IMG/VR virus record: IMGVR_UViG_2541047913_000006
From: a virus
Taxonomy: Duplodnaviria; Heunggongvirae; Uroviricota; Caudoviricetes
DNA: 42,832 nt
Strand: one strand, 5' to 3'
This document shows positions 11,562 through 18,305 of the stretch, piece after piece; position 1 is the first letter of the stretch, and the number at the start of each line of letters is the position of its first letter. The notes under the pieces were generated by a model, which was not told where the DNA came from, searched no databases, and was given only the letters and a program-made list of their open reading frames with translations. A program made the translations under genes and the position numbers.

Positions 11562-12164
11562 ATGAAAGGTAATATTCTTGGGGATATCCGAGCTGAACAT
11601 GACGAAAAGATGTTGGAAGCTTCATTTTGGCAAACAACTGATTATAAAGCTCTTCTCGAATCCTACGATCGATGCATCATTGTTGGCCGCAGAGGAACAG
11701 GAAAAAGTGCTCTGGTGCATATGCTTTCCAAACATTGGCATGCTAAGCCAAAAACCTATGTGATGACTATTAGTCCGGTTGAAGAACAAATTATTGGATT
11801 AAGGGATGTTATTTCTTTATTTGGTGAAAATTACTTACATATAAAAGCCGGTAGCAAGTTAGCATGGCGATATGCTATTTATATGGAGCTGCTTTCTGAG
11901 ATCGCAAGTCATTACAAGATGAAAAACGATCTTGACTACAAAAGTGTAGAGTCGCATTTATTATCTTGGGGACCGAAGAGACAAAATATAAGTAGCAAAA
12001 TAAGAAAAAAATTGAACGCTATTCTCGATGATAACAAAAATATAAAACCAGCTACAAGAATAGCCGAATTATCCGATAAATTTGAACTTGACTTATTGGA
12101 AGAGGTGATAGAAGAAGCAATTTCGAAGTCAAATAATCAATTTGTTATTTTTGCTGATAGGCTT
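11562..12164 (+). pseudogene. P-loop NTPase gene, 3'-truncated by IS1 insertion
   Basis: Walker A CIIVGRRGTGKSALVHML near N-terminus; AT-rich; the reading frame runs into IS1 at 12165, and the last 27 codons of the track ORF (to 12245) are IS1-derived. Confidence 0.6.
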
Positions 12165-12179
12165 GGTAATGACTCCAAC

Positions 12180-12683
12180 TTACTGATAGTGTTTTATGTT
12201 CAGATAATGCCCGATGACCTTGTCATGCAGCTCCACCGATTTTGAGAACGACAGTGACTTCCGTCCCAGCCTTGCCAGATGTTGTCTCAGATTCAGATTA
12301 TGTCGCTCAATGCGCTGAGTGTAACGCTTGCTGATAACGTGCAGCTTTCCCTTCAGGCGTGATTCATACAGCGGCCAGCCATCCGTCATCCATACCACGA
12401 CCTCAAAGGCCGACAGCAGGCTCAGAAGACGCTCCAGTGTGGCCAGAGTGCGTTCACCGAAGACGTGCGCCACAACAGTCCTCCGTATCCTGTCATACGC
12501 GTAAAACAGCCAGCGCTGACGTGATTTAGCACCGACGTAGCCCCACTGTTCGTCCATTTCAGCGCAGACAATCACATCACTGCCCGGTTGTATGCGCGAG
12601 GTTACCGACTGCGGCCTGAGTTTTTTAAGTGACGTAAAACCGTGTTGAGGCCAACGCCCATAATGCGTGCACTGGCGCGACAT
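12180..12683 (-). CDS. insB: IS1 transposase InsB (167 aa)
   Basis: [64 protein letters not shown]... matches IS1 InsB. Confidence 0.9.
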
Positions 12684-12877
12684 CCGACGCCATTCATGGC
12701 CATATCAATGATTTTCTGGTGCGTACCGGGCTGAGAGGCGGTGTAAGTGAACTGTAGTTGCCATGTTTTACGGCAATGAGAGCAGAGATAGCGCTGATGT
12801 CCGGCAGTGCTTTTGCCGTTACGCACCACGCCTTCAGTAGCGGAGCAGGAAGGACATCTGATGGAAATGGAAGCCAC
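12602..12877 (-). CDS. insA: IS1 InsA (91 aa)
   Basis: [68 protein letters not shown]... matches IS1 InsA. Confidence 0.9.
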
Positions 12878-13049
12878 GCAAGCACCTTAAAATCACCATC
12901 ATACACTAAATCAGTAAGTTGGCAGCATTACCCACGCAGACTTTGTGTAAATGTTAACAAATGTGCGTTTTATTTGATCTGATTCGCTGTTTGAGCGTCC
13001 AAAACAACGGTATATATAATCCTTTACTATATGACATATGTGAGGAAAA

Positions 13050-13478
13050 ATGGGTTTTCGTAGCGCATCAATTCTTACGTTGATTATTAGTGGGATTATT
13101 ATCGGGTGCACTGATGCTGTATCGACAAATTATCATGACCGTACATCATATTACTCCGATAAAGCAATAGAGACACAGTATGTGAGTTCATCTGAACGTA
13201 CTTCTGATGTTAGTGAGGATATCCGTCTGTATGCCCATCAAATCAAGAGCGCCATCGAAAAACAGTTCGGGGATGCGAGTAAGTATTCAGGAAAAGAGTG
13301 TACACTGAGAATGCATATGGCCCCGAATGGCCTTCTACTGGAGGTTAAAAGAGAAAGTGGAGACCTCGATTTATGTCGTGAAGCGATGAATGCGATAAAG
13401 AATGCTGATATACCTGCCCCCCCTTCGCCGGAAGTATATAAAGTATTTCAAAATGGGGTGCTGGATTTTAAACCCTGA
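13050..13478 (+). CDS. Lipoprotein with TolA domain-III-like C-terminal domain
   Basis: Signal peptide with lipobox IIGC; C-terminus YAHQIKSAIEKQFGDASKYSGKECTLRMHMAPNGLLLEVKRESGDLDLCREAMNAIKNADIPAPPSPEVYKVFQNGVLDFKP resembles the TolA C-terminal domain as I recall it (...YAGQIKSAIESKFYDASSYAGKTCTLRIKLAPDGMLLDIKPEGGDPALCQAALAAAKLAKIPKPPSQAVYEVFKNAPLDFKP). Confidence 0.7.
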   Translation: MGFRSASILTLIISGIIIGCTDAVSTNYHDRTSYYSDKAIETQYVSSSERTSDVSEDIRLYAHQIKSAIEKQFGDASKYSGKECTLRMHMAPNGLLLEVKRESGDLDLCREAMNAIKNADIPAPPSPEVYKVFQNGVLDFKP

Positions 13479-13628
13479 TATTTATTGTTTTGTAATAAAC
13501 GGTTTCGGCTTAGGTTTGTTCTGACACAGCTACGGCACTGAGCTAAATTTAGCGGATAGTCAGCTCTGAGCCAGTGGCGGACGTAACAACTACTATTGCT
13601 GAGATTTTAATGGATTGAGGAGCAAGAA

Positions 13629-14024
13629 GTGGGATTAAAGAAAATCGTTATGTTGACTTTTTGGGTCGGTTTTGTTGCGGGATGCACACCTTTACACCCT
13701 TCAGATTGCCACAAAACTACTGCTACAGGTAGTTGCAGTTCAGGACGCTGGGATGATCAGGATGAATGGGGGGCGCAAGCGCGGGGAATCAGAGCTGCAA
13801 TTAATGCCAAACTTGATGAGCCGCATAACTGGAAAGGGAAAAAATGCAGGTTGCATATGGAATTCTCTCAGGATGGCACGGCGTTAAAAATATCTACCAG
13901 TAACGGTGATAAAGCCTATTGCGAAGCGATAAAGTCCGCAGCTCATAAAGCCAAATTTCCGGCCTTCAACAATCCGGAAGTCTACAGAGATTTTCAGAAA
14001 TCTGGCTTTGACATGCGAGGTTAG
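13629..14024 (+). CDS. Lipoprotein, divergent paralogue of the TolA-III-like lipoprotein
   Basis: GTG start with RBS GAGGA; lipobox VAGC; C-terminal KKCRLHMEFSQDGTALKISTSNGDKAYCEAIKSAAHKAKFPAFNNPEVYRDFQKSGFDM aligns with the upstream paralogue and TolA-III. Confidence 0.6.
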   Translation: MGLKKIVMLTFWVGFVAGCTPLHPSDCHKTTATGSCSSGRWDDQDEWGAQARGIRAAINAKLDEPHNWKGKKCRLHMEFSQDGTALKISTSNGDKAYCEAIKSAAHKAKFPAFNNPEVYRDFQKSGFDMRG

Positions 14025-14149: not shown

Positions 14150-14172
14150 AGCTCGCTACGGCGAGCTTTTTA
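14150..14172 (+). terminator. Intrinsic terminator (possible tR'-like, or terminator of the lipoprotein operon)
   Basis: Hairpin AGCTCGC-TACG-GCGAGCT followed by TTTTT, about 100 nt upstream of the holin start. Confidence 0.45.
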
Positions 14173-14275
14173 TATTGCATCGTCTCCAGCATATATATCA
14201 ATTAAGGCTCTGATTGATGTGTCTGAAAGCCTACACATAATAACTATGCCATCCGTTCCGTGCGGAGGTGAGGCT

Positions 14276-14491
14276 ATGAAATCCATGGACAAAATTTCAA
14301 CAGGCATTGCCTACGGCACCTCCGCAGGCAGTGCTGGCTACTGGTTTTTACAGTTGCTCGATAGAGTAACTCCGTCACAGTGGGCTGCAATCGGTGTGCT
14401 GGGTAGTCTGGTATTTGGCCTACTGACGTACCTGACAAACCTTTATTTCAAGATTAAAGAAGATAAGCGCAAGGCTGCGAGAGGTGAATAA
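14276..14491 (+). CDS. Holin (class II, EssD/S21-like, 71 aa)
   Basis: [71 protein letters not shown]; two TM segments; dual-start motif MKSM; RBS GGAGGTGAG; 1-nt overlap (TAATG) with endolysin. Confidence 0.8.
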
Positions 14492-14988
14492 TGCCTCCAT
14501 CATTACGAAAAGTCGTTGCTGCTGCTATTGGTGGCGGAGCAATTGCTATAGCATCAGTGTTAATCACTGGCCCAAGTGGTAACGATGGTCTGGAAGGTGT
14601 CAGCTACATACCATACAAAGATATTGTTGGTGTATGGACTGTATGTCACGGGCATACAGTAAAAGACATCATGCTCGGTAAAACGTATACCAAAGCAGAA
14701 TGCAAAACACTCTTGAATAAAGACCTTGCCACGGTCGCCAGACAAATTAACCCGTACATCAAAGTCGATATACCGGAAACAACGCGCGGCGCTCTTTACT
14801 CATTCGTTTACAACGTGGGTGCTGGCAATTTCAGAACATCGACGCTTCTTCGCAAAATAAACCAGGGCGATATCAAAGGCGCATGTGATCAGCTACGTCG
14901 CTGGACATATGCTGGCGGTAAGCAATGGAAAGGTCTCATGACTCGTCGTGAGATTGAGCGTGAAATCTGTTTGTGGGGTCAGCAATGA
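14491..14988 (+). CDS. SAR endolysin (GH24 lysozyme, R21/RrrD-like)
   Basis: 165 aa; N-terminal Gly/Ala-rich signal-anchor-release segment ([20 protein letters not shown]); lysozyme motifs (EG..Y.PY.D..G..T.G.GHT). Confidence 0.85.
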
Positions 14989-15286
14989 ACAGAGTAACCG
15001 CGATTATCTCCGCTCTGGTTATCTGCATCGTCGTCTGCCTGTCATGGGCTGTTAATCATTACCGTGATAACGCCATCGCCTACAAAGAACAGCGCGACAA
15101 AAATGCCAGAGAACTGAAGCTGGCGAACGCGGCAATTACTGACATGCAGATGCGTCAGCGTGATGTTGCTGCGCTCGATGCAAAATACACGAAGGAGTTA
15201 GCTGATGCGAAAGCTGAAAATGATGCTCTGCGTGATGATGTTGCCGCTGGTCGTCGTCGGTTGCGCATCAAAGCAGTCTGTCAGTC
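14985..15286 (+). pseudogene. rzpR: Rz i-spanin, N-terminal fragment (interrupted by IS3)
   Basis: [21 protein letters not shown]...[14 protein letters not shown] then frame enters IS3 at 15287; ATGA overlap with endolysin stop. Confidence 0.8.
15205..15286 (+). pseudogene. rzoR: Rz1 o-spanin lipoprotein, N-terminal fragment embedded in +1 frame of Rz (interrupted by IS3)
   Basis: [27 protein letters not shown]; lipobox VVGC; continues after IS3 at 16547-16651 (QCVKPPPPPAWIMQSPPDWQTPLNGIISPSGNDW). Confidence 0.75.
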
Positions 15287-15316
15287 TGATCCTACCCACG
15301 TAATATGGACACAGGC

Positions 15317-16183
15317 CTAAGCGAGGTTCTTGTTTTCAAATTGTTCCGGACTGAGGCCGCCACACCAACTGTGCCGCCGCCACCGATTGTAATCACATTC
15401 GATATAATTAAACACCGTTGCCCGCATTATTTCCCGGCTGATAAAGTGTTCTCCATGGATACATTCCACTTTCAGCGAATGAAAGAAGCTTTCCACGCAG
15501 GCATTATCGTAGCAGCAACCTTTTGCGCTCATACTTCCACGCAGATTATGCCGCTTCAGTTGCGCCTGATAATCTGCTGAACAGTACTGGCCTCCACGGT
15601 CCGTGTGAACGATAACGTTCCGGGGCCTCTTACGCCGCCACAGCGCCATCTGCAGGGCATCGCAGGCCAGTTGCGCCGTCATGCGTGGCGACATTGACCA
15701 GCCAATAACGGCACGTGACCACAGGTCAATGACCACTGCCAGATACAGCCAGCCTTCATCTGTACGTAAGTACGTGATGTCTCCTGCCCACTTCTGGTTC
15801 GGGCCACTGGCGTAAAAATCCTGCTCCAACAGATTTTCTGACACAGGCAGGCCGTGTGCGCGGTAGCTGACCGGGCTGAACTTCCGGGAGGCCTTTGCCC
15901 TCAGTCCCTGACGGCGCAGGCTTGCCGCCACGGTTTTTACGTTAAAGGGGTAACCCTGAGCACGCAGTTCATCCGTCAGGCGTGGGGCACCGTAACGCTG
16001 TTTTGACCGGGTAAAAGCCGCGAGGACAACGCTGTCGCAGTGTTGGCGGAACTGCTGACGCGTGCTTATCCTTGTCCGCCGCTGACACCACGTATACCAG
16101 CCGCTGCGGGCCACCCGGAGCACGCGGCACATTGCTTTGATGCTGAACTCAGCCTGATGTTTTTCAATAAAGACATACTTCAT
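15317..16183 (-). CDS. insF: IS3 transposase OrfB (InsF, 288 aa)
   Basis: DDE integrase-type transposase, [32 protein letters not shown]...; matches IS3 InsF. Confidence 0.9.
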
Positions 16184-16479
16184 TTCAGGCGCTTCGCGAA
16201 GTATGTCGCGGCCTTTTGGAGGATAGCCAGCTCTTCATCCCGTTCTGCCAGCTGGCGTTTGAGACGTGCAATCTCGGTAGACATCTCCAGTTCACGTTCA
16301 GAAGACGTCTGCTGATTTTGCTGTTTACTGCGCCAGTTGTAGAGTTGTGATTCATACAGGCTGAGTTCACGGGCTGCGGCAGTAACACCGATGCGTTCAG
16401 CAAGCTTCAGGGCTTCACTGCGAAATTCAGGCGAATGCTGTTTACGGGGTTTTTTACTGGTTGATACTGTTTTTGTCAT
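16180..16479 (-). CDS. insE: IS3 OrfA (InsE, 99 aa)
   Basis: [32 protein letters not shown]...; HTH; overlaps insF as expected for -1 frameshift fusion. Confidence 0.85.
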
Positions 16480-16544
16480 GTGAGTCACCTCTGACTGAGA
16501 GTTTACTCACTTAGCCGCGTGTCCACTATTGCTGGGTAAGATCA

Positions 16545-16847: not shown

Positions 16848-18305
16848 ATGAATACATCTCATGTAAGAGTTGTTACTCATATGTGTGGGTTCCTGGTTTG
16901 GCTCTATAGTCTTTCAATGTTGCCACCAATGGTTGTAGCATTGTTTTATAAAGAAAAAAGCCTGTTCGTTTTCTTTATAACTTTCGTTATATTTTTTTGC
17001 ATTGGTGGCGGAGCGTGGTATACAACTAAGAAATCTGGCATTCAATTACGTACCCGTGATGGGTTTATTATAATTGTAATGTTTTGGATTTTGTTTTCTG
17101 TTATTAGTGCATTCCCTTTATGGTTTGACTCAGAACTTAATTTAACGTTCATTGATGCTCTGTTTGAAGGGGTTTCTGGAATAACAACAACAGGAGCAAC
17201 TGTAATTGATGATGTTAGTTCATTACCTCGGGCATATTTGTACTATCGGTCACAGTTAAATTTTATAGGTGGTTTAGGAGTTATTGTTCTGGCGGTTGCA
17301 GTATTGCCATTATTGGGTATTGGTGGTGCAAAGCTTTATCAGTCAGAAATGCCGGGGCCATTTAAGGATGACAAACTCACTCCCCGCCTGGCCGATACGT
17401 CACGGACACTGTGGATAACTTATTCTTTATTAGGTATTGCTTGTATTGTCTGTTATAGACTTGCAGGAATGCCTTTGTTTGATGCTATTTGTCACGGGAT
17501 TTCCACAGTTTCGCTTGGTGGTTTCTCAACTCATAGCGAGAGTATCGGATATTTTAATAACTATTTGGTTGAGCTGGTGGCTGGTTCTTTTTCCCTGCTA
17601 TCGGCTTTCAACTTCACTCTTTGGTATATTGTTATTAGCAGAAAAACGATAAAACCTTTAATCAGAGATATTGAACTTCGTTTCTTTCTGTTAATAGCCT
17701 TAGGGGTGATCATTGTTACCTCTTTCCAGGTCTGGCATATAGGTATGTATGACTTGCATGGAAGTTTTATTCATTCGTTTTTTCTTGCCAGCTCCATGCT
17801 CACTGATAATGGTTTAGCTACGCAGGATTATGCAAACTGGCCCACGCACACGATAGTGTTTTTGCTGTTGTCAAGTTTCTTTGGGGGATGTATAGGTTCA
17901 ACCTGTGGTGGAATTAAGTCACTTCGATTTCTTATACTTTTCAAACAAAGCAAACACGAGATAAATCAGCTTTCTCATCCCAGAGCGTTGTTGAGTGTAA
18001 ATGTAGGAGGGAAGATAGTTACAGATCGTGTAATGAGGTCTGTATGGAGTTTCTTTTTTCTTTATACTCTCTTCACGGTGTTTTTTATACTGGTGTTAAA
18101 TGGTATGGGATATGATTTTCTTACATCATTTGCAACAGTGGCTGCATGTATTAATAATATGGGATTAGGTTTTGGGGCTACTGCATCGTCATTCGGAGTG
18201 CTTAATGACATTGCAAAATATTTAATGTGCATAGCTATGATTCTTGGTCGCCTTGAAATTTATCCTGTTATTATATTGTTTTCAGGTTTTTTTTGGCGCT
18301 CCTAA
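16848..18305 (+). CDS. trkG: Trk-system potassium uptake protein TrkG (485 aa)
   Basis: MNTSHVRVVTHMCGFLVWLYSLSMLPPMVVALFYKEKSLF...; multi-pass membrane protein; AT-rich gene; matches Rac trkG as I recall it. Confidence 0.9.
   Translation: MNTSHVRVVTHMCGFLVWLYSLSMLPPMVVALFYKEKSLFVFFITFVIFFCIGGGAWYTTKKSGIQLRTRDGFIIIVMFWILFSVISAFPLWFDSELNLTFIDALFEGVSGITTTGATVIDDVSSLPRAYLYYRSQLNFIGGLGVIVLAVAVLPLLGIGGAKLYQSEMPGPFKDDKLTPRLADTSRTLWITYSLLGIACIVCYRLAGMPLFDAICHGISTVSLGGFSTHSESIGYFNNYLVELVAGSFSLLSAFNFTLWYIVISRKTIKPLIRDIELRFFLLIALGVIIVTSFQVWHIGMYDLHGSFIHSFFLASSMLTDNGLATQDYANWPTHTIVFLLLSSFFGGCIGSTCGGIKSLRFLILFKQSKHEINQLSHPRALLSVNVGGKIVTDRVMRSVWSFFFLYTLFTVFFILVLNGMGYDFLTSFATVAACINNMGLGFGATASSFGVLNDIAKYLMCIAMILGRLEIYPVIILFSGFFWRS

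Follow-up and report, generated by a model that had tools for sequence, protein, structure and literature searches.

Two tandem prophage lipoproteins built on TolA domain III, possible outer-membrane-tethered decoys for colicins and filamentous phages

Every group A colicin and filamentous phage needs the tip domain of TolA, and to our knowledge the natural protections against them are specific immunity proteins, or the loss or blocking of receptors. Cor of phi80- and N15-type phages is an outer-membrane lipoprotein that excludes other phages and colicins and that binds and plugs FhuA, and Llp of T5, which also plugs FhuA, is likewise a phage outer-membrane lipoprotein excluding phages and colicins. 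When the filamentous phage protein g3p is expressed in the host, as Boeke, Model and Zinder reportedly did in 1982, it is said to give tolerance to colicins and to superinfection by interfering with the contact of g3p and colicins with TolA domain III (TolAIII). Here we describe two tandem open reading frames, ORF1 and ORF2, at positions 13050-14024 of a 42,832-nucleotide stretch of viral DNA (Caudoviricetes; IMG/VR record IMGVR_UViG_2541047913_000006; this whole stretch is called the window), each of which encodes a small predicted lipoprotein ending in a copy of TolAIII. Neither Llp nor Cor is a copy of a host import protein, unlike ORF1 and ORF2, and neither is related to them in sequence or fold. 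The logic of g3p is the opposite one, as g3p occupies the real TolA, whereas ORF1 and ORF2 would mimic TolA and occupy the invader. Our favoured though tentative reading is that the pair are outer-membrane-tethered TolAIII decoys, giving tolerance to group A colicins and filamentous phages.

E. coli TolAIII (PF06519; structures 1TOL, 1S62, 2X9A and 3QDP/3QDR) has the same helix-strand-strand-helix-helix-strand fold, and the same disulfide, as the C-terminal parts of ORF1 and ORF2. The regions of TolAIII that matter here are the first helix (334-349), the colicin A box on strand beta2 (375-LLDIKP-380) and strand beta3 (415-APLDFK-420) (PMC4339652, PMC7391070). The box on beta2 is the site of colicin A on TolA (PMC4339652), and beta3 residues 415-420 are the common site at which the TolB N-terminus, colicin N and the N1 domain of g3p bind through beta-strand addition; the g3p-TolAIII interface is described in the same two papers (PMC4339652, PMC7391070). 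Affinities differ about 40-fold, TolA being bound by colicin N at about 1 uM and by TolB at about 40 uM (PMC4339652). A preliminary description of the locus had named both Pal and TolB as partners docking on TolAIII; the TolB N-terminus is indeed the established partner, and a direct contact between TolA and Pal is disputed (PMC7391070). Free domain III has been made artificially as well: TolAIII engineered for delivery to the periplasm (Levengood-Freyermuth et al. 1993; Wan and Baneyx 1998, via PMC6195910) likewise lacks domains I and II and interferes with Tol-dependent processes. The engineered domain is artificial, soluble and overexpressed, whereas ORF1 and ORF2 are natural, predicted to be lipid-tethered, diverged from host TolA and under selection. 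Unlike TolA itself, both have a lipoprotein signal peptide and a predicted outer-membrane anchor, and are encoded on a mobile element outside the tol-pal operon. The two genes are laid out as follows.

13050-13478, plus strand: ORF1, a 142-residue TolAIII lipoprotein, with an ATG start after GAGGA
ORF1 N-terminus (MGFRSASILTLIISGIIIGC): predicted signal peptide, residues 1-19, with lipobox IIGC and Cys20 at 13107-13109
ORF1 remainder: disordered linker, residues 21-54, and TolA domain III, residues 55-142 (13212-13475)
13629-14024, plus strand: ORF2, a 131-residue TolAIII lipoprotein of a second subfamily, with a GTG start
13617-13622, plus strand: GAGGAG, lying 6 nt upstream of the ORF2 GTG
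ORF2 N-terminus (MGLKKIVMLTFWVGFVAGC): predicted signal peptide, residues 1-18, with lipobox VAGC and Cys19 at 13683-13685
ORF2 remainder: conserved Cys-rich linker, residues 20-44, and TolA domain III, residues 45-131 (13761-14021)

The C-terminal parts of both proteins are TolA domain III beyond reasonable doubt. Both exceed the curated gathering cut-off of 25 bits for the Pfam family PF06519 (TolA C-terminal), ORF1 at 82.6 bits (E=2.4e-23) and ORF2 at 54.6 bits (E=1.3e-14), and a phmmer search of PDB sequences returns E. coli TolAIII (1s62, 3qdp, 2x9a, 1tol) at E=5e-28 and E=5e-9, respectively. An ungapped alignment pairs ORF1 residues 55-142 with TolA 334-421 at 60% identity (BLASTP, 86 residues), and LDFKP is the C-terminal end of both; ORF2 is ~32% identical to the same domain. 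AlphaFold2 models reach a predicted local confidence (pLDDT) of ~90 over residues 51-142 of ORF1 and ~45-131 of ORF2 and stay below 50 over the N-terminal remainder, which is consistent with a signal peptide followed by a flexible linker. Foldseek places the ORF1 model on 2x9a_B with a template-modelling (TM) score of 0.96, a root-mean-square deviation (rmsd) of 0.6 A and 59% identity, and the ORF2 model on 3qdp with TM 0.93, rmsd 1.1 A and 31% identity. The likeness to TolAIII had been proposed in the preliminary description from the C-terminal sequences, including the shared LDFKP end of ORF1, and profile, sequence and structure comparisons all bear it out.

The match stops at domain III. 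The cut-off of 213 bits for the full-length TolA model NF007065 is reached by neither protein (ORF1 107.8, ORF2 53.7), and where ORF1 passes the score of TIGR02794 (75.6 vs 59.45) the match covers model positions 265-362 of 362 only; for both proteins, the NCBIfam full-length TolA models are matched only over their last 80-100 positions. Neither protein possesses the inner-membrane anchor (domain I) or the long helical domain II of TolA, having linkers of 25-35 residues instead, so that both are cut off from TolQ-TolR and from the proton motive force. Within the domain, the disulfide-forming cysteine pair (TolA C363/C388) is invariant in the alignment, ORF1 and ORF2 included. ORF1 retains Y340, I344 and I348 of the first TolA helix, has LLEVKR in place of LLDIKP as a near-identical colicin A box, and reads GVLDFKP at beta3. 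ORF2 keeps both cysteines and the helix core, with ALKIST at the site of the colicin A box and SGFDMRG at beta3, a segment that is still modelled as a strand by AlphaFold2. ORF1 thus looks like a close mimic of TolA, and ORF2, which has diverged further, may have a different range of ligands.

At both N-termini a basic N-region (R4 in ORF1; K4 and K5 in ORF2) is followed by a hydrophobic core and a lipobox, and both satisfy a lipobox rule of the PROSITE PS51257 type (positive N-region, hydrophobic core and [LVI][ASTVI][GAS]C at residues 15-35). The two frames and the lipoboxes IIGC and VAGC reported earlier for these positions hold, and both genes are confirmed as intact. The proteins are predicted to be exported and lipid-modified at the lipobox cysteine. 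Residue +2 is Thr in both, not Asp, and by the Asp(+2) retention rule the proteins should therefore be sorted to the outer membrane. Among relatives the lipobox is kept in 118 of 120 for ORF2 and in 31 of 37 for ORF1, and Asp at +2 is found in none.

Automatic annotation treats the pair differently. RefSeq and PGAP give ORF1 as an incomplete "tolA" pseudogene with a missing N-terminus, marking only the last 87 codons (14269-14529 in the related intact prophage L001), although the full 142-codon frame with its lipoprotein signal is intact. The mistake is probably systematic and shared by hundreds of E. coli genomes. PGAP starts ORF2 at an internal ATG (13650), by which the basic MGLKKIV N-region of the signal peptide is lost; a strong ribosome-binding site, GAGGAG, precedes the GTG start at 13629, and the KK motif of this N-region is kept in the relatives from other genera. 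A systematic annotation error is thereby exposed, with ORF1 called a tolA pseudogene and ORF2 given a start that clips its signal peptide.

The ORF2 linker, C-x-PLHPS-x-CHKTTATGSCSSGRWDDQDEW (residues 20-46, 13686-13766), is nearly invariant from E. coli to Serratia. It carries two extra cysteines and a W-x5-W acidic stretch that is faintly like colicin TolB boxes. As a speculation, the conserved stretch SSGRWDDQDEWG might mimic a colicin "TolB box" (DGSGWSSENNPWG), a likeness of low complexity; the second Trp of this stretch aligns with TolA I337, within the first helix of the folded domain.

ORF1 and ORF2 are only 27% identical to one another and belong to distinct, old subfamilies with different distributions, which rules out a recent tandem duplication. 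The closest full-length relative of the ORF1 domain among those compared is E. coli TolAIII itself, and the identity of only 60% likewise rules out that tolA was taken from the host in recent times. Of 1.84 billion cluster representatives searched with a profile, 598 matched, and among the best 150 of these, 96 are of at most 170 residues. The small full-length representatives within the same 150 number 78; the lipobox is present in 55 of the 78, with Asp at +2 in none, and an xLDFKP-like terminal strand is also present in 55 of the 78. When clustered at 50% identity, no fewer than 55 clusters show the lipobox-linker-TolAIII architecture, and a few small TolAIII proteins carry ordinary signal peptides with no lipobox. 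Named small members come from Klebsiella, Rahnella, Dryocola, Citrobacter, Enterobacter and Serratia, under the automatic labels "TolA" or "colicin import membrane protein". These small TolAIII lipoproteins of other Enterobacterales have the same lipobox, linker and TolAIII ending in an xLDFKP-like strand, with sequences more than 50% different, and most are known by automatic annotation only. The homology to TolA is not new to the databases, being already named by PGAP and RAST.

Both ORFs are maintained as proteins. The ratio of nonsynonymous to synonymous substitution (dN/dS) between ORF2 and its plasmid, viral, Serratia and Enterobacter copies is 0.08-0.16 (synonymous divergence dS 0.5-1.05), which shows strong purifying selection in the ORF2 subfamily. 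Among ORF1 variants the overall dN/dS is 0.27-0.45, the domain giving 0.23-0.37 and the linker 0.3-0.9.

The whole 1.3-kb unit occurs in 774 of 5,426 complete E. coli genomes, nearly all at 99% identity or more, and some match to it in 1,342 of the 5,426. Among 50,697 deposited phage genomes the unit was found in one only (mEp460_ev081), and no TolAIII-like fold was found in the BFVD viral structure library. In IMG/VR, 34 loci carry the ORF1-ORF2 pair, and in all 34 the same phage-21-type holin gene follows ~200 bp downstream while the endolysin varies. In a further 23 loci an ORF1-type gene stands alone (65-68% identity), with the lysis cassette, where found, 3-4.5 kb downstream; in two examples (L061, L092) the late regulator lies on one side of the gene and nanS-p, DUF826 and the holin gene on the other. 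This is the slot that the stx genes occupy in Shiga-toxin phages. In L090-L092 (3636-5539) the lone ORF1-type gene is accompanied in this slot by a TfpB-family gene and a gene for an AraC-type regulator, which suggests that the interval from regulator to holin is a cargo hotspot in these prophages. An ORF2-type gene occurs alone in 18 loci (83% identity), following umuDC at the prophage end in the examples examined. In one of them (L040, 3088-6128) the gene, at 83% identity, follows umuD and umuC homologues and faces an SRAP (YedK-like) gene, and most of the 18 viral contigs end ~740 bp past the gene.

Outside phages, ORF2 relatives are found on 607 plasmids at 87-88% DNA identity. On I-complex conjugative plasmids (IncB/O, IncK/Z) the ORF2-type gene stands 68 bp after the relaxase gene, and on a pO157-like plasmid it lies in a region bounded by psiB/psiA/hok and toxB. 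The chromosomes of Serratia marcescens and the Enterobacter cloacae complex carry it as an ordinary gene whose neighbours are not phage genes; it adjoins nrdDG and a GmrSD/HEPN pair in Serratia and is stable in Enterobacter, where 15 further similar places were found. In Serratia marcescens L084 (6957-8736) the homologue lies directly upstream of the GmrSD-family and HEPN-domain genes, which are likely an anti-phage defence. Because it occurs on 607 plasmids and at ordinary Serratia and Enterobacter chromosomal sites, the ORF2 subfamily is not phage-specific and would not be a lysis gene. The preliminary description had put the pair in the moron slot before holin and endolysin; the position between regulator and lysis genes is confirmed.

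The window itself reads as a Rac-like lambdoid prophage from its sieB, ydaT- and ydaV-like genes, trkG and structural genes. The features around the pair are the following.

12165-12932, minus strand: insertion sequence IS1, 768 bp, with InsA/InsB ORFs and inverted-repeat ends, 117 bp upstream of ORF1
12991-13020, plus strand: sigma-70-like promoter, TTGAGC-18 nt-TATAAT (consensus scan, 10/12), 30 nt upstream of ORF1
14150-14167, plus strand: intrinsic-terminator-like hairpin with a T run to 14177, between ORF2 and the holin gene, conserved in L001
14276-14491, plus strand: phage-21-type holin gene (PF04971, E=4.5e-35)
14491-14988, plus strand: phage lysozyme gene (PF00959, E=5.7e-45)
14985-15286, plus strand: Rz spanin gene, 5' part only, interrupted by IS3 (PF03245, profile positions 1-74 of 126 only)
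15287-16544, minus strand: insertion sequence IS3, 1258 bp, with a GTC target duplication, within Rz/Rz1 (length difference to L001, 1261 bp)

In the intact L001 the order is a DUF1133 late-regulator-like gene, a late-promoter-like site with a strong terminator, the same ORF1 promoter-like site as in the window, ORF1, ORF2, the terminator-like hairpin, and then the phage-21-type holin gene (annotated essD), lysozyme and Rz. The unit is variably present between late regulator and holin, and its GC content is 0.41 vs 0.48 for the window. A promoter-like site and a terminator-like hairpin bracketing the pair in this way would be, as predicted signals, the anatomy of a moron. By comparison with L001, IS1 stands in place of the late-regulator, late-promoter and late-terminator region of intact relatives, and the IS1 event appears to have deleted the late-regulator region of this prophage relative to other genomes. 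The disruption of the Rz/Rz1 spanins noted earlier is clear, Rz being split by IS3 at 15287-16544, and the two insertion sequences together mark the prophage as putatively defective in late gene expression and in the last lysis step.

Tethered, unenergised TolAIII capturing invaders is the reading that best fits all of these contexts. The preliminary description had already raised a decoy or a disturbance of Tol-Pal, a reasonable idea, and the binding surfaces known from TolA are kept in ORF1. ORF1 and ORF2 would be accessory ("moron") genes of a Rac-like lambdoid prophage, whose flexible linkers of ~25-35 residues are predicted to hold a free TolA domain III out in the periplasm, where it would sit as a decoy directly beneath the outer membrane. 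The translocation domains of colicins (colicin N, and probably colicin A) and g3p N1 would bind it by beta-strand addition as they bind TolA, and the unenergised copy would thereby capture them before the real TolA does, so that import stalls. ORF1, with its identical beta3 LDFKP and its LLEVKR box, may serve as the close mimic, and ORF2 probably covers another ligand set because its colicin A box and beta3 have both diverged. Periplasmic TolAIII is reported to make cells colicin-tolerant, in what is said to be the finding of Levengood-Freyermuth et al. in 1993 in J Bacteriol 175:222. Since colicin N binds TolA so much more tightly than TolB does, a small quantity of decoy could be enough to capture invaders and still leave TolB free. 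The benefit would fall to the living carrier cell, which we propose as the reason why relatives are found on conjugative plasmids and chromosomes; the pili of conjugative plasmids would attract TolA-dependent filamentous phages. The fixed place in I-complex transfer regions is a notable, if circumstantial, link to filamentous phages, because If1, which attacks I pili, uses TolAIII (the complex is PDB 2X9A). Expression outside lysis is plausible because the AT-rich unit has its own promoter-like site and terminator and is intact where late regulator and late promoter are gone. We infer outer-membrane location, expression in non-lysing cells and ligand binding from the sequences.

Several points weigh against this reading. 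The case for binding to colicins, g3p and TolB comes from motif conservation only, and because beta-strand addition depends little on side chains, a conserved beta3 is weak evidence for any given ligand. A lysogen would pay a price for free TolAIII, which can impair Tol-Pal, and expression in the lysogen is deduced from consensus-level promoter matches only. The tight linkage to the holin in all the viral pair loci fits late, lysis-time expression equally well. Neither protein matches a PADLOC model at E up to 1, PHROG 5772, the family of these proteins, is listed as "unknown function", and a full-text literature search found no study of phage- or plasmid-encoded TolA-like lipoproteins. A remark on "TolA" for EDL933_2012 in PMC11125564 concerned a gene annotated as a tail fibre protein, and the lead was dropped.

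The main rival to the tethered decoys is a helper of lysis, in which, once the prophage is induced, a late-operon flood of unenergised TolAIII would titrate the TolB N-terminus, shut down Tol-Pal and loosen the outer membrane, speeding or completing lysis together with holin, endolysin and spanin. We consider this unlikely. It draws on position, as intact relatives place the pair downstream of a late-promoter-like site and terminator, with the holin gene always next, and as ORF1-type genes always lie between late regulator and holin. It also draws on what disturbed TolA does to the envelope: beta3 mutants of TolA without TolB binding show the full tol phenotype (PMC4339652), and engineered, overproduced periplasmic TolAIII perturbs the E. 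coli envelope and periplasmic proteins leak (PMC6195910). However, ORF2 relatives are under strong purifying selection even where lysis genes are absent, on plasmids and at chromosomal sites, and they therefore weaken any lysis-linked reading. The near absence of the genes from deposited phage genomes, together with the lack of a matching BFVD fold, argues that they are not a normal part of the lysis cassette; moreover, the unit has a promoter-like site and terminator of its own before the holin gene, and it has stayed intact in a degraded prophage with no late regulator and a broken spanin.

Alternatively, in growing cells a tethered TolAIII might bind TolB or another partner and tune Pal mobilisation, vesicle release or local tethering of outer membrane to wall, for example at the conjugation apparatus, instead of blocking invaders. 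This, too, seems improbable to us. A gene fixed directly after the relaxase gene of I-complex plasmids and the stable Enterobacter copies with their further similar places speak for such a modulator, the near-invariant ORF2 linker across genera suggests a second specific contact, and modulation of the TolB interaction could regulate vesiculation according to a review of Tol-Pal (PMC7391070). However, contexts as unrelated as a prophage late region, a prophage end by umuDC, plasmids and a Serratia defence neighbourhood are a better fit to self-contained protective cargo than to a component of a single machine. The pair could also be debris, the decaying pieces of a captured tolA, as the PGAP/RefSeq flag on ORF1 implies and as some frameshifted or truncated database copies (e.g. 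P0130, P0144-P0166) would suggest. This is very improbable, because both frames are uninterrupted and have ribosome-binding sites, their lipoprotein signal peptides are conserved and absent from TolA, dN/dS lies far below 1, matches at 99% identity or more are found in 786 E. coli records, and the architecture is repeated in other clusters; the pseudogene reading is contradicted by the selection and architecture data.

Should the decoy role hold, the pair would belong with the mobile-element lipoproteins that block import at the envelope, here built from a copy of the host import hub. Predicted lipid-anchored copies of TolAIII are carried by Enterobacterales prophages, by conjugative and virulence plasmids and by chromosomes. 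With rather more hesitation, we suggest that they form a widespread class of "co-receptor decoy" immunity, with tolerance to Tol-dependent bacteriocins and pilus-specific filamentous phages and with ORF1- and ORF2-type subfamilies covering different invaders. If true, a mobile, outer-membrane-tethered TolA mimic would be a new, horizontally spread mechanism of broad-spectrum tolerance, and it would bear on colicin competition in the gut, on therapeutics based on bacteriocins or phages that enter through Tol, on hosts for phage display and on the tuning of Tol-Pal. The hypothesis touches a common gene family, some version of which is present in about a quarter of the complete E. coli genomes (the 1,342 given above), with ORF2 relatives on pO157-like virulence plasmids and I-complex conjugative plasmids.

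Two further observations concern the neighbourhood of the pair in the window. IS1 truncates a P-loop ATPase gene of the Sll1717 family, with weak nSTAND3 and ORC-CDC6-like matches, in the region 11562-12932. As in the Rac prophage of E. coli K-12, trkG (16848-18305) separates the lysis cassette from the packaging genes; it encodes a potassium transporter and, with a GC content of 0.38, is another low-GC cargo gene.

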